Shown in pieces: positions 6,532 through 54,617 of a stretch of DNA of 64,000 nt (the stretch's first letter is position 1; each line of letters starts with the position of its first letter). A program made the position numbers and the translations under genes. The notes beneath the pieces are model-generated. The model made no database searches, had not been told where the DNA came from, and saw only the letters and a program-made list of their open reading frames with translations. Origin of the DNA: a virus (taxonomy: Duplodnaviria > Heunggongvirae > Uroviricota > Caudoviricetes); the IMG/VR virus record IMGVR_UViG_3300015615_000629, positions 288,001 through 352,000 of that record; one strand, given 5' to 3'.

Positions 6532-7035
6532 CTAAGGAAACACCCTAGCCGTGCAAGTTTCTTCCTTTGGGAAATAAACAGGTGTTTCGTCTAACAGGGG
6601 AATCTCTCCATCATCTAATACTTTGGCCAAGTATTGTGCATATTGCCCTTCTGGGCCTCCACTGAAGTTATGAATATAATTTAACTTAAATCTAGATTCC
6701 CAAAATCTTTTTATTTGATCTGTAAAATCACGCCCAGGCGAACAAACAGAAAAGGCATAGTTATAGTCTGTTCCCGTAACATCTCCCCGAACATGCAACA
6801 ACCCAGGATGATAGACTTTCATTCCTGGTTTAAACTCTTCTTTGGTTAAACCAAGCCCAAATAAACCATACCAAGTTGGCGTAATATAAGTAAAAAAGAC
6901 ATGCCAAGGTATCCGAATAGGATAACTTCCAGAATATAACTTTTTGTTAATTTCTATTTGGCCGTCAAAAATCAAGGTTCTAACTTGCGGCCGAAAAGTT
7001 ATGTATCTGAAATTATTTTCAGTTTTGATGTGCAT
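6532..7035 (-). CDS. Prok-E2_D-like paralog 5
   Basis: PQVRTLI; IRIPWHVF; HPGLLHV; FSVCS; FWESRF. Confidence 0.5.
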   Translation of the reverse strand: MHIKTENNFRYITFRPQVRTLIFDGQIEINKKLYSGSYPIRIPWHVFFTYITPTWYGLFGLGLTKEEFKPGMKVYHPGLLHVRGDVTGTDYNYAFSVCSPGRDFTDQIKRFWESRFKLNYIHNFSGGPEGQYAQYLAKVLDDGEIPLLDETPVYFPKEETCTARVFP

Positions 7036-7053
7036 GGTTTACTCTATTAATGG

Positions 7054-7695
7054 ATGGCACCAACTACATATAAATTTGAATGTTGCAACTGCGGTAAAAA
7101 ATGTGAGAGAGAACTTCGTTCACATCCTAAATATAAGGGTGATCTATGGAAAGGTAGGCTTTTTTGTTCTTTGCAATGTTTGGGAAATTTTAACAACAAA
7201 ACCACAATAGAACCATGTGGGAATTGTGGAAAATTAGTTGAAAAAATACCAAAAGAAATAAAAGATTCTAAATCAGGAAAAGTGTTTTGTAGTAGGTCAT
7301 GCTCAGCGTCCTTTAATAATAAATTTAAACGTAAGACAAATCGTTCCAAGTGCGAGAAACTTTTATTTAATCTAATCTCTGAAAAGTTCCCAGACTTAGA
7401 AATATTGTCTAACGATAAAACAATGTTAAATGGCTTGGAAGCGGATATTGCTATTCCATCTTTAAGACTCGCAATAGAGTGGAATGGGCCGGTTCATTTC
7501 AAACCAATATATGGTGAAGAAAAATTACGTAGGATTCAGGAGATTGATAGAAACAAATTAGAAATAGCCTCTAGAAATGACATTAATTTGATTGTCATTC
7601 CAGACTATGTTTCCAAAAAATCTTTCGTGTTAGAAGTTTTCGAAAAAATAAAGAAAATTATCAACGACTTACGTAGCGGAACCGGCACGGTATGA
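7054..7695 (+). CDS. Putative homing endonuclease: Cys-rich Zn repeats plus Vsr/DUF559-like PD-(D/E)xK nuclease
   Basis: CxxC...FCSxxC repeats; LEADIAIPSLRLAIEWNG..H; antisense to and overlapping tRNA-Ser(CGA); paralog at 48977. Confidence 0.7.
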   Translation: MAPTTYKFECCNCGKKCERELRSHPKYKGDLWKGRLFCSLQCLGNFNNKTTIEPCGNCGKLVEKIPKEIKDSKSGKVFCSRSCSASFNNKFKRKTNRSKCEKLLFNLISEKFPDLEILSNDKTMLNGLEADIAIPSLRLAIEWNGPVHFKPIYGEEKLRRIQEIDRNKLEIASRNDINLIVIPDYVSKKSFVLEVFEKIKKIINDLRSGTGTV

Positions 7696-7759
7696 TCGTG
7701 CAACCCTTTCGGGCATCTGTTTTCGAGGCAGACTGCTATTCCAATTTCGCTTCGGTTCC
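7677..7759 (-). tRNA. tRNA-Ser(CGA)
   Basis: GGAACCG/CGGTTCC acceptor; loop CTCGAAA; long variable arm; atypical T-loop ATCATAC. Confidence 0.8.
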
Positions 7760-7765
7760 TTAGAG

Positions 7766-7847
7766 CGGATGCGGCGTGTGCCGACCACGCAACCCTTTCG
7801 GGCAGCCGGGTTCAAACCGGTGTCCTCGCCAACTTCGGATCGCATCC
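7766..7847 (-). tRNA. tRNA-Ser(TGA)
   Basis: GGATGCG/CGCATCC acceptor; loop TTTGAAC; long variable arm; atypical T-loop GTCGGCA. Confidence 0.8.
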
Positions 7848-7855
7848 ATTTACAG

Positions 7856-7940
7856 CGGAAGGTGTGGAAGTCGAATCCACAAGGGTTTTATCCTCGACTC
7901 TTTAGCAAAGAGTTCCCGTCGCCAATCGGGTTGACCTTCC
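7856..7940 (-). tRNA. tRNA-Ser(GCT)
   Basis: ACTCT-TTGCTAA-AGAGT anticodon arm; long variable arm; TTCGACT T-loop. Confidence 0.9.
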
Positions 7941-7950
7941 AAATTAAACG

Positions 7951-7975
7951 TAAGTCCTTACCATATAAGGACTTA
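7951..7975. repeat. Perfect 10-bp inverted repeat between Ser tRNAs
   Basis: TAAGTCCTTA-ccata-TAAGGACTTA. Confidence 0.7.
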
Positions 7976-7979
7976 AGAG

Positions 7980-8059
7980 CGGATACGGAGCGATTCGAAC
8001 GCTCAACCCTTTCGGGCGACCGCTTTCCAAGCGGTTTCCTCACCATTCGGATCGTATCC
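7980..8059 (-). tRNA. tRNA-Ser(GGA)
   Basis: ACCGC-TTGGAAA-GCGGT; long variable arm; TTCGAAT. Confidence 0.9.
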
Positions 8060-8071
8060 AGTTTGTTTCAC

Positions 8072-8662
8072 TCAAAATATAAAATTCTCAATTTCCAACA
8101 CGTAACAATCTTCTAATTCTGGTTTCTCCTTTTTGCACAGCAACATCTTATTTGTAAGTTTTTCATCGACAAATAATTTCCATCTTCCATGTATAATGCC
8201 ACTTTCTCGAATCTCTACCTCTGAACTATCAATCCATTCAAAGCCGGAGGTTGCCGTCTGGAATACCGCCGCAACCTCCGGACCAACAACAATCCAACCG
8301 TGGCCATATCCTAACTTGTAGACAACTTGCAAAAATAATGCTTCATATTTTTCCATAATAGTGTCGCCAAGAGCCTCATTAAAATTCCATCTCGAATATG
8401 CAAAAGTTTGCCAATCTCTAGGCCATGTGGGTCTATTACTGTAGGCTTCTTCACACCCATCAATTAAAGTTTGCACTTCTTCGTGAGTTTTGATAAAGTC
8501 CCGCCCCATCCAAAACTTATATCCTTCGCAATCCTTGTATGGAGTGAGATCCCATTCTACAGTCCATTCCGCTTTCAATTTATATTTTGGTTTTTCTTTC
8601 TGGAAGAAAGAACCAATAAACGGCAGTCCTGCCAAAGCCAAACTAAAGTCTCGTCTGTTCAT
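8072..8662 (-). CDS. Truncated T4-gp23-like capsid-domain protein with Tat-like N-terminus
   Basis: MNRRDFSLALAGL; KLKAEWT; GHGWIVVGPEVAAVFQTATSGF; G.I.GRWKLFVD resemble the gp23 C-terminal half. Confidence 0.5.
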   Translation of the reverse strand: MNRRDFSLALAGLPFIGSFFQKEKPKYKLKAEWTVEWDLTPYKDCEGYKFWMGRDFIKTHEEVQTLIDGCEEAYSNRPTWPRDWQTFAYSRWNFNEALGDTIMEKYEALFLQVVYKLGYGHGWIVVGPEVAAVFQTATSGFEWIDSSEVEIRESGIIHGRWKLFVDEKLTNKMLLCKKEKPELEDCYVLEIENFIF

Positions 8663-8663
8663 A

Positions 8664-9146
8664 TTAACCTTTCGGTAATTCGGTTGGTGAAACCTTTTGA
8701 TTTGTCAACTTCCCTTGAGCTATGTCAAATAACCATTGAGCCCATACTGCCCTTGGAATAATTCGTCCGCCTATCTCTTCTGTTGTGATCGGTAAGCCAT
8801 GTGCAATAGGAGATAAATGCCCATCAAACATCGACCACCAAAAGTGCGATATACTTTCATCAAATTTCTTAATTATGTTTTTTGAAGTATATTTAATGTC
8901 TCCCAAACAAACAAAACCCTCATTTACGTTAGGGAGATCAGGAAACTCAAAACTATCTTCGGTTTCAAACCAAACCGCTAAACTGACTGGTAAACCATCC
9001 GTGGGCACCCATAAAAAGAAATGTATCTTGGGGAAATCTATATAATATGAGCGATTCCAAACGTTTAGTAAAGTCCTCTTCCCTGCTGGTTGTGTTCTGT
9101 GATAAATATAAGTGTATTCACTAATTTTGTAACAATCTGTAGTCAT
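8664..9146 (-). CDS. Prok-E2_D-like paralog 6
   Basis: PAGKRTLL; YYIDFP; LPNVNEGFVCLG; FWWSMF. Confidence 0.65.
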   Translation of the reverse strand: MTTDCYKISEYTYIYHRTQPAGKRTLLNVWNRSYYIDFPKIHFFLWVPTDGLPVSLAVWFETEDSFEFPDLPNVNEGFVCLGDIKYTSKNIIKKFDESISHFWWSMFDGHLSPIAHGLPITTEEIGGRIIPRAVWAQWLFDIAQGKLTNQKVSPTELPKG

Positions 9147-9150
9147 TTAA

Positions 9151-9714
9151 TCACAAATTGGCTAAAGATTTTAAACTCTTATACGTTTCTTGTTCGTCTT
9201 CCGAAACCTCAGCCACCTTGTATACACATATCTTACCTTTTCTTAAATCATTATAAAACTTGGTTCTTTCTATCTCTGTCTCTTCAGCACGAGCGTATAC
9301 ATCGCCTGTTCCATTAAAAAGAGCAAAGTTGTTTGTGAAACCCAATTCCCAAAATTGGTCAATTACCTTTTTACACAAGACAACAGGATCACTCTCTTCT
9401 ATCTTAATATCATATCCTAAACAAACGTACCCATTGTTGTCGTAAGCACAATTAGGTAATCTTAAACAATTTCCATACTTCGTCCGTACTATTAAAGCAT
9501 CGTCGCTTTTCTCATCTGATAAATCAAACACATATGTTTCAAGTTTTCGAAAATATACTTCAAAATTGAAACTTGGGAACGAGACACAATAAGGTCTGCT
9601 GGCTCCAAAAAATAGTTGGTCTTTAAAATAAACAGTCCTCTTGCAAGCAGGATTCTTTACCATGCCAAAATAACGACAATTATCACTTTTATTTTGGTAA
9701 AAATTGACTTTCAC
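9151..9714 (-). CDS. Prok-E2_D-like paralog 7 (likely GTG start at 9714; ORF track starts at 9789)
   Basis: PACKRTVY; YCVSFP; LPNC..NNGYVCLG; FWELGF. Confidence 0.6.
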   Translation of the reverse strand: MKVNFYQNKSDNCRYFGMVKNPACKRTVYFKDQLFFGASRPYCVSFPSFNFEVYFRKLETYVFDLSDEKSDDALIVRTKYGNCLRLPNCAYDNNGYVCLGYDIKIEESDPVVLCKKVIDQFWELGFTNNFALFNGTGDVYARAEETEIERTKFYNDLRKGKICVYKVAEVSEDEQETYKSLKSLANL

Positions 9715-10221
9715 AATCCTAACCTGTAAAGGCCGCTTCTTCTGACATTTCCAACGCCTTTTCCAACCCACTCCCCATAAAACTGCCAAATATTGTATTC
9801 CTGTATATCTTCCGTTCTTAATTCCTTTAACTTTTTCCTTATCTCGTCGGATTGCAATAGAATCACCTGCCCAGGAGCAGGCCGATACCTATCGTAAACT
9901 CTCTTTCTCTCCGCATAGTCAATTCTATCCCCAAACAGAAGCCGACAATGAAGAGCCGAATTAATCAATTCAGCAACTATATGTTGCGGACTTCTGTTTG
10001 CAAGCGTATCTGGAACCAAATAACATTGCGAAATCATGTTTTTCTTTCCGGCACTATCGCCTTCGATATTCTCCACAAACACAGTAAAACTAAAAAGAAA
10101 TAACCAAACCAACCTGGAGCGTTTTCTGCTTTCCATTCCCACTCAAATATGAATGGAATAAAAATCATCAAAGCCATTAGGGCTAATGTTGCGGTTCCAA
10201 CCAAAACAGCAGAAAAGATTT

Positions 10222-10740
10222 TCATTTCATCAATTCCTTTAGGGTTAGCCTTTTGTCCGGTATGGCTAACGCACTTAATTTGTTAGGACTTACTAATATC
10301 ACGCCCTTCTTGAGTGCTTTTACAAAACAACGTTGCATGTGTATTTTTTCTATGCGATCCTCGCCAGCGAGCATTGTATTAAATTCAGACCGCCAAAAAC
10401 TATCTATAACTTTTTTACATAACCGTAGTGGAGATTTAGCAGTAATTTGTTCGTCCTCTTCTCCCATGCAAACCATACCATCTGATACCGAATAAACATT
10501 CGGTAGTATAATCCCACGCCCTTTTGATGTTTTTACTGCAACTCCCTCATCATCTGTCTCATAGTGGTTGTTAGATATCTTTATAAAAAGTATTTCAAAT
10601 ATCAACTCGGGAAAACTTACAAAATATGGTTTATCATCATAAAAGATAGTTCTGCTGTGTTTTGGCACCAACACCTTGCCCAAATATTCGCCCTCATCGT
10701 GGTCGCTGAGCCTCGGCAATGTGAAGAATTTGTATTTCAT
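10222..10740 (-). CDS. Prok-E2_D-like paralog 8
   Basis: PKHSRTIF; YFVSFP; LPNVY..DGMVCMG; FWRSEF. Confidence 0.65.
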   Translation of the reverse strand: MKYKFFTLPRLSDHDEGEYLGKVLVPKHSRTIFYDDKPYFVSFPELIFEILFIKISNNHYETDDEGVAVKTSKGRGIILPNVYSVSDGMVCMGEEDEQITAKSPLRLCKKVIDSFWRSEFNTMLAGEDRIEKIHMQRCFVKALKKGVILVSPNKLSALAIPDKRLTLKELMK

Positions 10741-10757
10741 TGTGGTATCGGCCCAAA

Positions 10758-11255
10758 TTAAGCCTTACGTTGCAAATCAAAGGCTGAGATTTCTTCGCCT
10801 AGAAACGTTGAATTAATCTTGTCTTCTGAAAGCGATATTTCCCCTTTTTCTATATCTTCAAAGAATTTATCTTCGGCGTCTTCCTCTTCCTCGGAATTAT
10901 CCAAACCAAGAAATTGATTGAATTCAGACATCCAAAAACTATCCAAGATTTTCTTACATAATTCAATTGCGTTTTTGTCTTTTATCGAGTTATCCAGGCC
11001 GGTACAAACAGTGCCTTCCCAATCTACATTGGGAAGATTTATACCATAGCCCTCTTTTGATTTGATAAGCAAATCGCAAAAATTAATGTTAAAATAAAAA
11101 CCATCCTCAATTATGAAATCTATTTCAAATACCAAATCCGGAAATCTGACATAATAAGGAGTCATTATGTAGAAAATAGTTCTAGAATGACTCGGTACAA
11201 ATACCTGTGCTATACAGCATTTTCTCTTTGAGTTTTCAAAAAACTTAATTTCCAT
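10758..11255 (-). CDS. Prok-E2_D-like paralog 9
   Basis: PSHSRTIF; YYVRFP; LPNVDWEGTVCTG; FWMSEF. Confidence 0.65.
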   Translation of the reverse strand: MEIKFFENSKRKCCIAQVFVPSHSRTIFYIMTPYYVRFPDLVFEIDFIIEDGFYFNINFCDLLIKSKEGYGINLPNVDWEGTVCTGLDNSIKDKNAIELCKKILDSFWMSEFNQFLGLDNSEEEEDAEDKFFEDIEKGEISLSEDKINSTFLGEEISAFDLQRKA

Positions 11256-11410
11256 GCCTTTTCTCGAATAAAATTAATTCTTTTTTGAGAAATTGCCGTT
11301 GCTTCTTTCTCGACTTTATTTCCCGAAGATCAGACTCATGCCACCATTCCAACCAGTGCTTTAAACAAAGTGCTGTTGGGGAAACATATTTGGCTTGTTT
11401 TGGGCATTTT

Positions 11411-11896
11411 TTACAAATCATCTCTAACTCGATAATCTTCTAATTCACCATTAATTACTTTAATCAGTATCGCAGTCCACCAAGACGGAGCAAATTGCCG
11501 ACCAATACTACAATCATACGAGGTAGGATCAAATCTAGATTGCCAAAAATAAGAAACTAGATTTTTAAGTTGCTCAGATACAGAGTCTTTAAATGGAATT
11601 ATATCGTTTCCCGTACACATCGAGCCACTATTACAATTTGGAAAACCAGAATATGTTATCACCCCATCTTTTTCAAAAAACACTATCAAACCGCCCCTGT
11701 TACTAGAAGAAGTGATGGCCCGCCAAAGAAAAAAATGTATCTTCGGCAGGTCTAAACAGACAGGCTTATTTCCTAAAATAACAGTCCTAGAACATGGCTC
11801 TTGCTCAGCATGAGCCATATGAACATCGAAATCGTAACCTGCCGTTTTAATAGTCTTTAGAGTCTTTGGTATTTTGTAACACTTGATCGGTCGCAT
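11411..11896 (-). CDS. Prok-E2_D-like paralog 10
   Basis: EPCSRTVI; LDLPKIHF; FPNCNSGSMCTG; FWQSRF. Confidence 0.6.
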   Translation of the reverse strand: MRPIKCYKIPKTLKTIKTAGYDFDVHMAHAEQEPCSRTVILGNKPVCLDLPKIHFFLWRAITSSSNRGGLIVFFEKDGVITYSGFPNCNSGSMCTGNDIIPFKDSVSEQLKNLVSYFWQSRFDPTSYDCSIGRQFAPSWWTAILIKVINGELEDYRVRDDL

Positions 11897-11902
11897 TTGG
11901 CC

Positions 11903-11930
11903 ATTATAGCACAGTCTGGACAGATGTAAA
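11903..11930 (-). promoter_or_regulatory. sigma70-type early promoter
   Basis: TTTACA-N16-TATAAT with TGTGC. Confidence 0.65.
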
Positions 11931-11931
11931 A

Positions 11932-12018
11932 TGAGAGTACACGGAATTGAACCGCTCGGCTATCCACCCGACTTTTTAGAGCCTTGTGTTCTACAGACAC
12001 ACGTCGGGAAATACTCTC
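11932..12018 (-). tRNA. Atypical tRNA-Tyr(GTA) lacking a conventional D-arm
   Basis: GAGAGTA/TACTCTC+A73; TGTGT-CTGTAGA-ACACA; GCGG-TTCAATT-CCGT; D-region CCCGAC complementary to GTCGGG in an enlarged variable region. Confidence 0.7.
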
Positions 12019-12314
12019 TAATGAATGAACTCAGGAAACGCATCAGGCTTGCTTTTTCTTATAGTTTGAACCGCCAGAGACTTTGCCATTTGTTCTGGCG
12101 ACCTACTGTGCGGAAAACTACTTTTCTCATCAAGTTTTAATTCGCCTTTAAATGCAATAACTTCTTCGAGAAAAGATTCGATTTCTGGGGCCAAGTCTGA
12201 TTCGGCCCGCGATGGCTCGGAAATAAATTCTATAAAATCGCCCAATAATTCTTCCCATAATGGAATATATTCTGGATTCTCTTGCATCGCTAAGCGAACA
12301 TGTTTGAAAAACAT

Positions 12315-12503
12315 TTAGCCTCCCATTCCACTTTCTAGGCGGAAACACATTTCCTCGATTGGCTTCAAACCTTCTCTTTCAATCACCTCAATTGGTGTTC
12401 TATTGTAAAAGAATCTATTTGGAGTTTTAAGCCAAGTTTCTATGAATTCTTCTTTAATCACCGATGATAGAAGAATTTTGGCTTGGTTGAGATTGTTGTT
12501 CAT
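12315..12503 (-). CDS. Xre/MbcA/ParS antitoxin C-terminal (DUF2384-like) domain
   Basis: WLKTPN..F..RTPIEVI...G...IE....RLESG. Confidence 0.7.
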   Translation of the reverse strand: MNNNLNQAKILLSSVIKEEFIETWLKTPNRFFYNRTPIEVIEREGLKPIEEMCFRLESGMGG

Positions 12504-12505
12504 AG

Positions 12506-12593
12506 TGACCGAGACAGGACTTGAACCTGCACGCCTTATTTATTCGGCACGGCGTTCTCATCGCCGCATGGCTGCCAATTACATCACTCGGTC
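12506..12593 (-). tRNA. tRNA-Leu(GAG)
   Basis: CGGCG-ATGAGAA-CGCCG; long variable arm; TTCAAGT. Confidence 0.85.
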
Positions 12594-13351
12594 TTATTTG
12601 CGGCTATTTTAGCCCAATAACCTCTAGGAGGTTTATTGATTCCTAAATTCTTTGCCCACTTAGCAATCGCATTATCACTCACGCCAAAATCTTTGGCAAT
12701 TTGCGTTGTTGGTTTTTCCCAAAGTAATTTTTCAAGTTCATCTTTGGTTGGGTGTGGAACTTTGTGTGGTTTCGGTCTTTTACGCCAATTGTTATCAATA
12801 GGATTGCCGGATTTTATTCTTTTATCTTTTCTTTTTGTTCTCGCTACACGATTAAACTCGCCAGTGTTCCCTGTTAATCCAGTTTGTCCTTTATTAAGTC
12901 CAAACGTAGATGTTTGACTATGGCAGTTTGGACACATAAATCTAAGATTTTCTTTTTTATTGTCTAAAAAATTTCCGTTGATATGATCAACATGCAATCT
13001 TATCTCTTTTCCTTGCCACATACCATTGCAACCACATTTTTCACACTTATACTCTCTCCCACTTTCAATTAGTGCTCGTCTAAGTCGAACACCATGTTCT
13101 CTTCTATACTGGGTTTTTCCTTCTACAAGAATTTTACTCCAATGTTGTTTTTTTGGAGACGTTTTTCCTCGACAATGACATTGACCTGTAAAATGAGATG
13201 AATCAATTTTAAGGTTTTTTATTTTATTTCTTATATTTGTATGGCTTCCTCCTCCAAATTTAATGCCTAATCTCCGCATTACCTCGGAGATGGACATAGA
13301 CTGTTTTACTGCTTCTTCAAGTTGTTCTTTTGTATATTTTGTGTAACTCAT
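12584..13351 (-). CDS. HNH homing endonuclease with flanking HTH domains
   Basis: CEKCG...LHVDHING...DN..ENLRFMCPNCHSQT; located between Leu tRNAs. Confidence 0.85.
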   Translation of the reverse strand: MSYTKYTKEQLEEAVKQSMSISEVMRRLGIKFGGGSHTNIRNKIKNLKIDSSHFTGQCHCRGKTSPKKQHWSKILVEGKTQYRREHGVRLRRALIESGREYKCEKCGCNGMWQGKEIRLHVDHINGNFLDNKKENLRFMCPNCHSQTSTFGLNKGQTGLTGNTGEFNRVARTKRKDKRIKSGNPIDNNWRKRPKPHKVPHPTKDELEKLLWEKPTTQIAKDFGVSDNAIAKWAKNLGINKPPRGYWAKIAANKTE

Positions 13352-13416
13352 ACCCTAAGAGAGTATGGCTTTACCAAATATAACTAAAAGATATCAAATT
13401 TTACGAAAATTTTAAG

Positions 13417-13490
13417 TAGCTCCGGCGAGATTCGAACTCGCAGCATCGAACGTTCTAAGCGTTCGTGGTCGTCCAGTTGCCTACAGAGCC
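13417..13490 (-). tRNA. tRNA-Leu(TAG), short variable arm
   Basis: GAACG-CTTAGAA-CGTTC; 74 nt. Confidence 0.85.
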
Positions 13491-13507
13491 AAATTGATAT
13501 TTTTAAG

Positions 13508-13581
13508 TAGCCCAGAACGGATTTGAACCGTTAGCATCGGATTTTTTGAAAATCCGTGGTCTTCCAGTTGCCTACTGGGCC
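13508..13581 (-). tRNA. tRNA-Leu(CAA), short variable arm
   Basis: GGATT-TTCAAAA-AATCC; 74 nt; paralog of the TAG copy. Confidence 0.85.
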
Positions 13582-13589
13582 ATTGAATC

Positions 13590-13611
13590 AAATTAAATTA
13601 TCAAAGAACAA
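13590..13611 (-). promoter_or_regulatory. boxA-like antitermination element, copy 1
   Basis: TTGTTCTTTGATAATTTAATTT; 21/22 identical to 53851-53872; resembles rrn boxA TGCTCTTTAACA. Confidence 0.65.
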
Positions 13612-13612
13612 A

Positions 13613-13687
13613 TAAGACGGGTGGGACTCGGACCCACAAACGAAGATTTTTAAAATCTTCCGCATTATCCAGTTAGCGTACCGTCTC
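13613..13687 (-). tRNA. tRNA-Leu(TAA), short variable arm
   Basis: AAGAT-TTTAAAA-ATCTT; T-loop TCCGAGT. Confidence 0.75.
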
Positions 13688-13691
13688 AAAG

Positions 13692-13764
13692 TGGTAAGGA
13701 TCGGAATCGAACCGATTTAGCGCCGTCTTCAGCGGCGTGCAATGACCACACCTGCTCCCTTACC
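13692..13764 (-). tRNA. tRNA-Phe(GAA)
   Basis: CGCCG-CTGAAGA-CGGCG; TTCGATT. Confidence 0.85.
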
Positions 13765-14028
13765 ATAAACTCTAAATATCGCTTGCTTTTCTATTTCTTT
13801 TATAGTCCCTTTCATGTCCTAACACGTATTCACCTTTCATTTTGGAATGAACGGCAAATACAGTCCAGCCATCGTCCCAACTGCCATCTTCTTGTTTTAT
13901 CTTTACTACATTTCCTTCAATGGCAAACTTTGAAGGAATCCACGAAACATCGCGTTGATAGCCGTTTTCAGTCGGCTTTCGTAATTCACATTGGTTATAG
14001 TAATCTGATTTATTCATAAAATTCCTAG

Positions 14029-14114
14029 TAGCCACAGCCGGACTTGAACCGGCAAGGGGTTTGCACCCCATCGGATTTTAAGTCCGATGCGTTTTCCAAT
14101 TTCGCCATGCGGCC
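14029..14114 (-). tRNA. tRNA-Leu(TAA), long variable arm
   Basis: TCGGA-CTTAAAA-TCCGA; canonical class II fold. Confidence 0.9.
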
Positions 14115-14117
14115 AAC

Positions 14118-14154
14118 AAAAAACCCTCAGTAACCACTTGGTTACTGAGGGTTT
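14118..14154 (-). terminator. Intrinsic terminator (attenuator 1) immediately 5' of tRNA array 1
   Basis: CCCTCAGTAACC-AAGT-GGTTACTGAGGG followed by TTTTTT; ends 3 nt before tRNA-Leu. Confidence 0.85.
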
Positions 14155-14180
14155 CGTATTCCCTAAGTCTAAGCGGTCAC

Positions 14181-14246
14181 TCAGCCATCGTCGCTATAGA
14201 GCGACAAGGATAAAAATGACAGGCTTAGACTAAACATCGCGTTCAT
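14181..14246 (-). CDS. Leader peptide 1 (21 aa, MNAMFSLSLSFLSLSLYSDDG)
   Basis: Read directly: ATG AAC GCG ATG TTT AGT CTA AGC CTG TCA TTT TTA TCC TTG TCG CTC TAT AGC GAC GAT GGC TGA; lies between promoter and terminator. Confidence 0.8.
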   Translation of the reverse strand: MNAMFSLSLSFLSLSLYSDDG

Positions 14247-14297
14247 TGTAGTGTATCTATTCTTCTCGTTTTGGTTTTTCTGCCACCGACTACAAAA

Positions 14298-14325
14298 ATC
14301 TTAGCACAGGATTTTCGTTTGTCAA
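14298..14325 (-). promoter_or_regulatory. sigma70-type promoter for leader 1 and tRNA array 1
   Basis: TTGACA-N16-TAAGAT with TGTGC extended -10. Confidence 0.7.
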
Positions 14326-16093
14326 GCGGGCGGCGAAAATTTTTCGACACCTTTGTAGTTTGTCCACGGATCACAACCGATTATAATATAGCCGGTTTCA
14401 GAGAACAACCTGCCAAGGTTATCCGGTTCAGGCATAATTTCCACAAACTTACCAGAAAAATCTCGATGTTCCAGGTTTCCCACATATGGATACGGCCTTT
14501 TGTCCCGTCGTCGAGTGAATTCTATTGTGTGACCATTTATCGATAGTACAAGATTATCGCCTTTTCGAACAACCAACATGGTTTGGGTGTCGGAGAAACT
14601 TCCGTGTTTGTGTCTGCAAACATCAACTAAATAATAATCGGCTTCCCCTTGGTCTATGACGTAACTGCTTGGGCGGACCTCTTCGTCTTCAAGTTCCAAC
14701 GGTGCTTTCCAACCAGAAGATATTTTGGACATAAAATGGAAATAACTTATATTGTGGGATAACTTGCCTTCTTTATCCCATTCCAACCTAACTAATTTTT
14801 CTAGAAAATAAACTACAATTCCACCTTCGCCTTCCCAACAAATCCAATTTGGTTCGTTCGTTGGGTTTGCACGAATTAGATTTCTGGCTTTCTCAATCGC
14901 CACTAAACTTGGTGAATAATAGCCATCGTCCTCTTCTTCGGGATTCTTGGCATATTCGTCAAGTATTTTTTCTGCTTCTTCGATAGTCATTTTAATACTT
15001 TAACTCCGCTCCCTCTGGTAGGGATTCCAACAAAGTATAGACATTTTCACCGCCAATAGGATTTTCTTCGGTTTTTGGAACGTCAATAAATTCTTTAAAT
15101 ACGATAAGAGGATCGGGGCAATCAATACCTTCCATCAATTTTGTAAGTTTTTTGGCACGCTTTGAAGTGCTTTCTAAAGCCTCTTCTTCACTGGATTCTT
15201 CAATGGCTCGGCAATCCAAATAGGAATAAAGGCGTTTGTTTTCTTTTTGTTGATAGAACCCCCAACGTTGATAAGTGGTTTTACCGTTAAGTTTAGATTT
15301 GGATACAATTTGGAGTTCTATTTCTCGATATTTTTCTTTGAAAATCCGCCCATATTGAATATCAACTGCTTCTGTTATTAGGCAATTTTTATCTTCTTTG
15401 AGCCATCGCCCTTCTTCGGCTGTCCAACCATTTTCTTCTAGAAATTTAGTATTTCGCTCAATGTAATCCAAACTTACAGCACTTAGGTTTTTTTCGTCGC
15501 CGACAAGAACGTATTCTTTGTTCATTAAACCATTCCGTGTTGTTCGTTTTCCTTCATCCTGCAAAGTTGTTCAAGCACCTCAATGTTAGCATAAAATTGC
15601 AACATTCTTAATCTATCAATTGTCGGAAGATCAGAAAGAACTTTTGGCAATTTGCCTCCGTTTCCGACATGTTCGAGTAATTTCTGGCTTAGTTCCACCG
15701 CTGCGGCGAAATTTCCTTCTCTATGAAGGTTACACATATCTTGCCAGCAAACATCGGGGTAAAAGTCGCTCAAAAGAAATCTCCTTTGTTTATTTCAATA
15801 CAATTCCAGGCACAGATTTTTTTAATTCTTCGGCCATTATGGCAAGTATTCTTTTGCGTTCTTCTTCTGTGAAATCTGTGCTGAATTCCAATTTTATTGA
15901 TTTTATTTTAATTGATTGACAATCTTGGCAATAATGTTTTGCGGGGTGATTTGGCCTACCGTCGTGTTCCTGTTGCCATCCCAATTTTGCGGCCGATTCT
16001 GATAACGATTCTCTAGATTGAGGAATAAAAGTTACACTTTTCCCACAAGTATCACAAATAAGATGCCGAGTTATTTTGTGCATTGTAGTTTAC

Positions 16094-53850: not shown

Positions 53851-53872
53851 AAATTAAATTGTCAAAGAACAA
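53851..53872 (-). promoter_or_regulatory. boxA-like antitermination element, copy 2
   Basis: TTGTTCTTTGACAATTTAATTT, right after the first tRNA of array 2. Confidence 0.65.
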
Positions 53873-53945: not shown

Positions 53946-53963
53946 AAATCACTTTTCCAAACG

Positions 53964-53996
53964 AAAAAACCCGCTTCAGGTTTGAACCTGAGCGGG
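53964..53996 (-). terminator. Intrinsic terminator (attenuator 2) 5' of tRNA array 2
   Basis: CCCGCTCAGGT-TCAA-ACCTGAAGCGGG-TTTTTT; ends 18 nt before tRNA-Thr. Confidence 0.85.
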
Positions 53997-54052
53997 CTTT
54001 AAGTGATTCAGCCGACCCAGGTTTTATCCTGAGCCGTGTCTTGTTGACTGGT

Positions 54053-54142
54053 TCAGGACGAGATGATGGTGCATCCTTGGCGCGTATTAATATCGCACCA
54101 ATTATGCTGTTTATCTCGTCTTGTACCAATCATGAGTGACAT
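54053..54142 (-). CDS. Leader peptide 2 (29 aa, MSLMIGTRRDKQHNWCDINTRQGCTIISS)
   Basis: ATG TCA CTC ATG ATT GGT ACA AGA CGA GAT AAA CAG CAT AAT TGG TGC GAT ATT AAT ACG CGC CAA GGA TGC ACC ATC ATC TCG TCC TGA. Confidence 0.8.
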   Translation of the reverse strand: MSLMIGTRRDKQHNWCDINTRQGCTIISS

Positions 54143-54175
54143 TTTAGTTTCTTCTACTTTCGTTCTAACTGTAAG

Positions 54176-54256: not shown

Positions 54257-54331
54257 TGGTGGCAGGGGAGGGCCTTGCACCCCCAACCTTCGGGTTTAAC
54301 CCCGACGCTCTATTTTTTGAGCTACCCCACC
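54257..54331 (-). ncRNA. tRNA-like RNA with 6-nt anticodon loop and encoded CCA
   Basis: GGTGGGG/CCCTGCC-ACCA; TCGGG-GTTAAA-CCCGA. Confidence 0.65.
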
Positions 54332-54338
54332 AATTAAG

Positions 54339-54420
54339 CGGCCAGGGATGGTAACGAGCCACCGACCTCCGCTACTTGCCATTGCTGACTTTCGCGGTGC
54401 TCTCACTGAGCTACCTAGCC
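54339..54420 (-). ncRNA. tRNA-like RNA with expanded, hairpin-containing anticodon arm
   Basis: GGCTAGG/CCTGGCC; GCTC/GAGC D-stem; CCGC-[GAAA GTCA GCAA TGGC AAGTA]-GCGG; T-arm GGTGG/CCATC. Confidence 0.6.
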
Positions 54421-54589
54421 ATGTTCTTCTATATAGAAGATTCAAATCATTTTTTCTTCACGCACTTAGTAAAACCTCCTTTTGGTCAGAGTTACTAATT
54501 GCGGCCGGAATTGAGCTATTCCTTTCGGACTTACTCAAGGATTACCGGCCCTTGTGCTGTTTCGCTCTTTTCTTGCCGTCAACTCCCCT

Positions 54590-54617
54590 ACTATAGCGTG
54601 ATTTTTTGGGTTGTCAA
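54590..54617 (-). promoter_or_regulatory. sigma70-type promoter for tRNA-like RNAs, leader 2 and array 2
   Basis: TTGACA-N16-TATAGT. Confidence 0.7.

Follow-up and report, generated by a model that had tools for sequence, protein, structure and literature searches.

The window analysed here is a stretch of 64,000 nucleotides (nt) corresponding to bases 288001–352000 of a 572,167-base-pair (bp) phage record with direct terminal repeats (IMG/VR record IMGVR_UViG_3300015615_000629). The G+C content was approximately 39%, and almost all genes were located on the minus strand. The locus under study, a putative leader-peptide attenuator placed in front of an array of transfer RNA (tRNA) genes, likewise had all of its features on the minus strand. 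These features followed each other, from 5′ to 3′, as a promoter, an A-rich leader of approximately 45 nt, a leader open reading frame (ORF) of 21 codons, a further 26 nt, a terminator hairpin with a tract of six U residues (U6), and a tRNA gene for leucine (Leu). The positions are given in Table 1 and refer to the window unless genome coordinates are stated. No match was obtained when the locus was compared with GenBank phages by megablast or when the upstream ORF was compared with them by tblastn.

Table 1. Features of the leader locus, of the tRNA array behind it (array 1) and of the two sister leaders.
Feature	Position	Strand	Remarks
Sigma-70-type promoter	14325–14298	minus	−35 identical to consensus; 16-nt spacer with TG; −10 matches 4/6; total 10/12
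Leader ORF	14246–14181	minus	21 codons and stop
Regulatory core, codons 5–18	14234–14193	minus	Phe, Ser, Leu and Tyr codons only
Region 1, 5′ strands of long-range helix	14231–14211	minus	inside codons 6–12; covaries across six phages
Inner hairpin	14207–14188	minus	8 bp, 4-nt loop, codons 14–20; helix 3 of the family alignment
Region 2, stop codon and 3′ strands of long-range helix	14183–14166	minus	would be covered by a ribosome at the stop codon
Candidate antiterminator (weak)	14187–14139	minus	composite helix of ~10 pairs, −11.6 kcal/mol
Intrinsic terminator	14154–14118	minus	5′ arm 14154–14140, loop 14139–14136, 3′ arm 14135–14121, U6 14123–14118
tRNA-Leu, anticodon UAA	14114–14028	minus	long variable arm, 87 nt; ARAGORN and Rfam; first gated gene in the proposed scheme, 3 nt after the U tract
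tRNA-Phe	13764–13691	minus	ARAGORN and Rfam
Three tRNAs with Leu anticodons	13688–13612, 13581–13507, 13490–13416	minus	short variable arm, 75–77 nt; ARAGORN and Rfam
HNH endonuclease ORF	13351–12584	minus	interrupts the array; helix-turn-helix motifs; Pfam matches just under curated cut-offs
tRNA-Leu, anticodon GAG	12593–12505	minus	long variable arm, 89 nt; ARAGORN and Rfam
tRNA-like element	12018–11933	minus	Tyr anticodon triplet in loop; perfect 7-bp acceptor stem, T arm, no normal D arm; Rfam E = 0.32
Promoter-like site	11930–11903	minus	best promoter match of the region, 11/12; directly after the tRNA-like element
Four tRNA-Ser	8059–7979, 7940–7855, 7847–7766, 7759–7676	minus	distal array
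Sister leader, array 2	54142–54053	minus	29-codon ORF
Sister leader, array 3	genome 116761–116690	minus	23-codon ORF; extended −35 motif of its promoter nearly identical to that of array 1

Transcription was predicted to start near 14291, so that the leader ORF began approximately 45 nt downstream of the start point. The −35 element lay in an extended 16-nt motif that had three copies in the 572-kilobase (kb) genome, and two of the three preceded tRNA arrays (arrays 1 and 3). The 14 codons of the regulatory core comprised two for phenylalanine (Phe), six for serine (Ser), five for Leu and one for tyrosine (Tyr). All five Leu codons differed from each other and the Ser codons were of five kinds, which agreed with the reading of the core in the original prediction made for this DNA. 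Other amino acids were specified by the three sense codons that follow the start and by the final three codons.

The RNA structure of the locus was evaluated by folding. The whole 216-nt stretch folded at −75.6 kcal/mol, compared with −47.8 ± 3.9 kcal/mol for shuffled sequences (z = −7.1). The pairing of region 1 with region 2, termed the 1:2 or anti-antiterminator domain, contributed −31.6 kcal/mol, and its 5′ strand was located inside the regulatory codons. An outer helix (14231–14223 with 14174–14166) and a second helix segment (14220–14211 with 14183–14176) were both present in the minimum-free-energy fold, confirming an earlier proposal that a segment of the ORF pairs with a segment after its stop codon. 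The terminator that had been described as a 12-bp stem with U6 was also recovered; its G+C-rich core of 12 bp was extendable to 16 bp, and the hairpin, closed by a 4-nt loop, had a predicted energy of −26.0 kcal/mol. The gap between the U tract and the first tRNA-Leu measured only 3 nt, in which no promoter fits. Hence, this tRNA can be transcribed only through the terminator hairpin.

The array behind the terminator contained five tRNAs with Leu anticodons, one tRNA-Phe and four tRNA-Ser, as the original prediction had listed. One tRNA-Ser was called by ARAGORN at the default setting, two others (7940–7855 and 7759–7676) were recovered at a lower threshold, and the fourth (7847–7766) was recognized by eye. 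This fourth tRNA has the anticodon UGA and an unusual T-loop, which is probably the reason why it was missed by ARAGORN and Rfam. The Tyr tRNA that had also been listed was not recovered in canonical form, and the sole candidate was the non-canonical tRNA-like element. The Leu and Phe part of the array was separated from the Ser part by approximately 4.4 kb of ORFs, within which the promoter-like site at 11930–11903 was located. The three short-arm tRNAs with Leu anticodons adjoined a tRNA-Leu with a normal long arm, and tRNAs of 75–76 nt with Leu anticodons were also called by ARAGORN in three of the related phages described below. An HNH-type homing endonuclease inside a tRNA region is a feature shared with phages T5 and T4.

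The correspondence between the leader and its array was then expressed in codons and anticodons. The array had nine distinct anticodons; all nine had a readable codon in the leader, and for eight of them the exact Watson–Crick codon was present. Conversely, 13 of the 14 core codons could be decoded by the tRNAs of the array. When the leader was compared with the other two tRNA arrays of the genome, only 3 of 20 codons were matched in each case. The whole genome contains 3,827 ORFs that start with ATG and have 15–45 codons; only two of these sampled all nine anticodons while at least 65% of their codons were decodable, and the leader was one of the two. The other (genome position 113713) had neither a promoter nor a terminator and was taken as a chance occurrence.

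Two more cassettes with the layout of leader ORF, terminator and tRNA array were present in the same genome. In the leader of array 3, 19 of the 22 codons after the start encoded alanine, valine, glutamate, methionine, glycine or proline. The ORF was followed by a terminator and, approximately 10 nt further on, by an array of proline, methionine, glutamate, alanine, valine and glycine tRNAs, of whose 11 anticodons 10 were sampled by the leader. In the leader of array 2, 23 consecutive codons specified isoleucine, glycine, threonine, arginine, aspartate, lysine, glutamine, histidine, asparagine, tryptophan and cysteine. A terminator followed and then, after approximately 18 nt, an array of exactly the same 11 isotypes, with 15 of 17 anticodons sampled. 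When the 3,827 short ORFs were ranked against each array by anticodon coverage and then by decodable fraction, the leader of that array came second in all three cases, and each leader matched the other arrays poorly. The amino-acid sets of the three leaders had only glycine in common, and their union comprised all twenty amino acids. In leaders 2 and 3 (53955–54156, minus strand, and genome 116580–116775), spacers of 62–76 nt separated the stop codon from the detected apical terminator hairpin. Their terminators were nearly identical to each other, and multi-hairpin relays replaced the simple three-way design.

Relatives of the phage were sought through its portal protein. In GenBank, this protein matched one record, LR756511.1, an uncultured phage of 595 kb, with 51% identity over the full length. 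When used alone against IMG/VR, the protein produced no match, whereas an alignment of the two portal sequences retrieved 79 IMG/VR contigs. No relatives were found with a neighbouring protein of 222 amino acids. Two other routes were abandoned: the HNH ORF led only to an unrelated tRNA cluster on the opposite strand, and DNA patterns based on the tRNAs were rejected since these genes have diverged too far in the relatives. The array of LR756511.1 had four Ser, two Tyr and six Leu tRNAs, and directly upstream of it were a promoter, a Shine–Dalgarno sequence, an ORF of 27 codons in which those for Phe, Ser, Leu and Tyr were abundant, and a terminator. A DNA search, followed by a covariance model built from four leaders, identified further homologs in IMG/VR records of 527, 341, 210 and 223 kb, so that homologous leaders were present in five huge phages whose portal proteins were approximately 50% identical to that of the phage studied here. 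In all five relatives, the leader lay upstream of an array in which ARAGORN called almost exclusively Ser, Leu, Tyr and Phe tRNAs; at a lower threshold, four calls of other types were added in the arrays of three relatives. Two near-complete relatives (459 and 390 kb) that have no such array gave no match to the leader model, and in the phage studied here the model detected no copy other than the window leader.

The leaders of the six phages were compared in sequence and structure. The ORFs of the five relatives had 24–27 codons, and purine runs resembling Shine–Dalgarno sequences were seen by eye upstream of their start codons. Across the six leaders (21–27 codons), the peptide sequence was not conserved; only the composition was, with a run of the same four amino acids that began at codon 4 or 5. 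The 5′ strand of the long-range helix started at codon 5 or 6 in all six, and the 3′ strand, as read from the folds, began at or just after the stop codon. The consensus structure of the six-phage alignment consisted of the long-range helix, the inner hairpin and the terminator. Consensus pairing was observed in 91.4% of the alignment cells, compared with 36–52% when the partners were slid by 1–3 columns, and changes on both sides occurred in 24 of 41 pairs, compared with 6–11 in the slid controls. The observed values were reached by none of 500 shuffles. Compensatory changes across the phages were found in 6 of the 12 pairs of the inner hairpin and in 14 of the 16 pairs of the terminator (helix 4). 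Owing to a short tandem duplication in its region 2, the window sequence was aligned with a shifted register at helix 1. Two more in-frame stop codons were observed within 24 nt after the leader stop (14161–14183, minus strand), and the leaders of three relatives, as read from the sequence, likewise had another in-frame stop at a distance of a few codons at most. These extra stops arise in part because region 2 is the complement of Leu and Ser codons.

The use of synonymous codons was also compared. The numbers of distinct Leu and Ser codons summed to 61 over the six leaders, compared with approximately 48 expected (a value obtained by hand arithmetic), and a sum of 61 was reached in none of 50,000 simulations under uniform random synonymous choice, which is the most generous null. 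For the window leader alone, the evidence of such diversity was modest (p = 0.09 for Leu and p = 0.25 for Ser).

These observations point to a locus that is probably a ribosome-mediated transcription attenuator, in which the speed of decoding a leader peptide would gate the phage tRNA genes. Under this reading, transcription would begin at the promoter near 14291, and a ribosome would translate the 21-codon leader. If all the Phe, Ser, Leu and Tyr codons of the core were decoded rapidly, the ribosome would reach the stop codon and cover region 2, and the terminator would form. The terminator would also form when no ribosome translated the leader, as region 1 would then pair with region 2. In either case the transcript would end at 14118–14123, with a length of approximately 175 nt. 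If any core codon were decoded slowly because its tRNA was scarce or uncharged, the ribosome would linger on region 1, and region 2 and its neighbours could occupy part of the 5′ arm of the terminator before the 3′ arm was made. RNA polymerase would then continue through tRNA-Leu into the remainder of the array. Since the tRNAs produced would be those under test, the circuit would constitute a negative feedback loop. Moreover, almost every synonymous codon is used once, and the leader would therefore behave as an OR gate over approximately nine isoacceptors and not as a detector of a single amino acid. The four Ser tRNAs of the distal array may be under the control of the same element.

The switch was modelled by masking a ribosome footprint of 30 nt at each codon and folding the RNA up to the terminator loop, an approach that the original prediction had proposed. 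Under stalling, a composite antiterminator was predicted. It consisted of a helix of seven pairs with one mismatch (14168–14161 with 14151–14144) and a second helix (14187–14185 with 14141–14139), with a small local hairpin between them. This structure was predicted when the A site was on codons 4–15, and it was not predicted for codons 16–20 or without a ribosome; it required that region 1 be masked and that the 3′ arm of the terminator be not yet made. Six of its 10 pairs used bases that are sequestered by the 1:2 domain. In the full-length RNA, the terminator was part of the minimum-energy fold in every state, so any switch must be kinetic. The five-base antiterminator that had been suggested earlier, CTGAG over the stop codon with CTCAG in the terminator arm, was rejected: the complementarity exists, but the helix amounted to only −6.4 kcal/mol when forced and was absent from all the predicted stalled folds. 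Hence, of the classic alternative pairings claimed for this leader, the anti-antiterminator and the terminator were strong, whereas the antiterminator that had been named was not favoured.

The same model gave a clearer picture in two of the relatives. In the 210-kb relative, stalls on codons 4–14 were predicted to raise the upstream pairing of the terminator arm from approximately 5 to 13 of 20 nt; the value returned to approximately 5 on later core codons and was 6 for a ribosome on the stop codon. Masking by a ribosome stalled on core codons raised the pairing in LR756511.1 from 8 to 12 of 17 nt. The bases that paired with the arm in these two phages were those otherwise paired with region 1. 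A clear switch was predicted in these two relatives only, and the register of the antiterminator differed in each phage. It is concluded from the models that the leader family would have the three-way logic of a classical attenuator, a weakened form of which may be retained by the window copy. Thermodynamic switch models of leaders 2 and 3 predicted an antiterminator in nearly every state and were hence uninformative.

Several points weigh against the attenuator reading or reduce the weight of its evidence. The first group concerns the switch at the window locus. The composite antiterminator (−11.6 kcal/mol) is much weaker than the terminator (−26.0 kcal/mol) and covers only approximately 10 of 16 arm positions; the energies in the classical trp attenuator have similar ratios. 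Of the 16 arm bases, 5.5 were paired upstream in the free RNA, 7–8 with a stalled ribosome and 6.8 with a ribosome at the stop codon, a small shift in occupancy. The duplex between region 2 and the 5′ arm of the terminator was not better than in shuffled sequences (p = 0.30), and in the relatives it was only marginal (p = 0.08–0.38). The Shine–Dalgarno sequence of the leader ORF is poor at the window locus, unlike those of the relatives. The second group concerns the array. A canonical Tyr tRNA was not found in the array behind the leader, the sole confident Tyr tRNA of the genome being located far away (genome 558543–558622). The Ser tRNAs lie approximately 6 kb downstream of the leader, beyond a strong internal promoter-like site. 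The third group concerns the statistics. The alignment used for covariation was fitted to the covariance model, and the six leaders are of common descent, which makes them look more independent in the pooled statistics than they are. Furthermore, full coverage of the anticodons is not rare under random synonymous codons once the peptide is given (p ~0.2 for the window leader and p ~0.2–0.6 across the six). The coverage is unremarkable given the peptide, which places the signal in codon-level diversity and not in anticodon-level coverage. The proposal of an attenuator whose codons mirror the downstream tRNAs is nevertheless supported, because of its anatomy, the two sister cassettes and the five homologous leaders with covarying structure; the strength of the antiterminator and the Tyr tRNA are the parts that did not hold.

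Three other explanations were weighed against these data. The leader may be translated and may gate the terminator while reporting amino-acid supply or general translation capacity instead of isoacceptor abundance. A stall would follow from any shortage of charged tRNA, and the mechanism alone does not distinguish an uncharged tRNA from a missing one; the ordinary statistics of anticodon coverage are also compatible with such a sensor. However, an extra tRNA cannot relieve starvation, and the wiring would then be purposeless. Classical leaders repeat one or two codons, whereas the six leaders use nearly every Leu and Ser synonym, to an extent that the simulations did not reproduce, and the three leaders of the genome partition the amino acids exactly as their arrays partition the tRNAs. 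This explanation is therefore considered unlikely. Slightly less probable is a structured non-coding 5′ leader or a stable RNA of approximately 175 nt, in which the ORF is incidental and the tRNAs are produced by constitutive leaky read-through or by way of processing signals. The very stable fold and its covariation, the weak Shine–Dalgarno sequence at the window locus and an antiterminator that does not exceed chance would all be expected of such an RNA. Against it, an ORF rich in the same four amino acids has been kept in the same frame in six diverged phages, with Shine–Dalgarno-like sequences in five; in the three cassettes of the genome the ORF composition follows that of the array behind it, and the synonymous codons are over-dispersed. 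An element that acted at the RNA level alone would require none of these features. The third explanation, that the ORF simply encodes a hydrophobic micropeptide, has a terminator of its own and stands before the tRNAs by coincidence, is very improbable. The core is indeed hydrophobic and Ser-rich, as a short membrane or amphipathic peptide might be, but the peptide is conserved in composition alone, the two sister ORFs have wholly different compositions that match their own arrays, and the first tRNA, 3 nt after the U tract, depends on the leader transcript.

If the attenuator reading is extended to all three cassettes, giant phages may carry a homeostat of the tRNA pool. The three leaders would partition the genetic code among them, each serving as a near-complete codon checklist for its own array, and the loss or slow decoding of any isoacceptor would induce the replacement set. 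This wider proposal is considered about as likely as not. Host anticodon nucleases, decay of host tRNAs induced by the phage, or a mismatch in codon usage could act as triggers.

With respect to known systems, the proposed mechanism is most like that of the multivalent ilv leader-peptide attenuators, which by analogy would be its closest class. The leaders of ilvGMEDA and ilvBN, together with those of leu, his, thr, trp and pheA, share with it a short promoter-proximal ORF, a cluster of codons for several amino acids, a hairpin that overlaps these codons and a terminator before the first gene; in the enterobacterial leaders, the place where the ribosome stands determines which alternative pairing forms, as is proposed for the phage leader. 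The phage leader differs in that it would control tRNAs and not biosynthetic enzymes, that its codons are spread over nearly all synonyms, that its antiterminator at the window locus is weak, and that it is encoded by a phage in three complementary copies. An Rfam scan of positions 7000–16000 with cmscan (E values up to 1) gave only tRNA-type matches, with no Leu, His, Thr, Trp or Phe leader family and no T-box. The attenuator of Escherichia coli pheST, whose leader pheM has a run of Phe codons, controls the synthetase for the amino acid that is sensed. It is the nearest case of a translation component under leader control, and it reads one amino acid, whereas the phage leader would read three or four and approximately nine anticodons. 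T-box riboswitches likewise act through a terminator and an antiterminator, and they report the state of a specific tRNA to genes that serve the same tRNA. A T-box binds the uncharged tRNA directly by a specifier codon and has no ORF, whereas the phage leader has an ORF and would sense many tRNAs through the ribosome. The tRNA region of phage T5 similarly contains tRNA clusters among small ORFs, homing endonucleases, and annotated promoters and terminators; no codon-matched leader was found there in eight translated small annotated ORFs or in one interval between a promoter and a tRNA (P14a to tRNA-Tyr). A full-text literature search, whose coverage excluded most subscription journals, did not return any description of tRNA genes controlled by a leader peptide. 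To our knowledge, tRNA genes are subject to promoter strength, growth-rate and stringent control, and processing, and leader-peptide attenuation has not been described for them. The principle of the switch is classical; the use of tRNA genes as its target and the codon-checklist design would be new.

If the attenuator reading is correct, huge phages would adjust the expression of their many tRNAs to demand, one array at a time, and the input would be the decoding speed of the codons that those tRNAs read. The phage could then answer the depletion of tRNAs by host defences without the constant production of 40 or more tRNAs. If the homeostat proposal also holds, ribosome-mediated attenuation would sense tRNAs rather than amino acids, and the product would close the loop directly. 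The leader would represent a compact natural multi-input sensor of isoacceptor availability, possibly useful as a cell-free part. Moreover, a short ORF that mirrors an array, followed by a terminator that abuts the first tRNA, could serve as an annotation signature for metagenomic phages.

A number of minor observations were made in the regions around the other arrays. Upstream of array 2, a promoter at approximately 54589–54617 preceded a mini-ORF of seven codons (54465–54442, minus strand) with a strong Shine–Dalgarno sequence. The mini-ORF was followed by a small hairpin and by two tRNA-like sequences (approximately 54257–54420) that were not called by ARAGORN, all of which were located upstream of a tRNA-Met and leader 2. 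A motif of approximately 13 nt was present in array 2 at 53855–53870 (minus strand), 12–18 nt before a tRNA, and three relatives also had it between the leader terminator and the first tRNA, close behind the terminator; a search of array 1 with an exact 9-mer did not find it. This motif is similar to the boxA of ribosomal RNA operons. Of the three copies of the extended promoter motif, the remaining one was located at genome 286874–286889, approximately 1.1 kb before the start of the window, and no leader ORF came after it. Behind this copy were the 3′ half of a tRNA-like sequence, possibly an intron-containing tRNA, a small ORF, and a tRNA whose anticodon is of the opal-suppressor kind (genome 286239–286310). 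A tRNA of the amber-suppressor type was located at genome 30802–30894.

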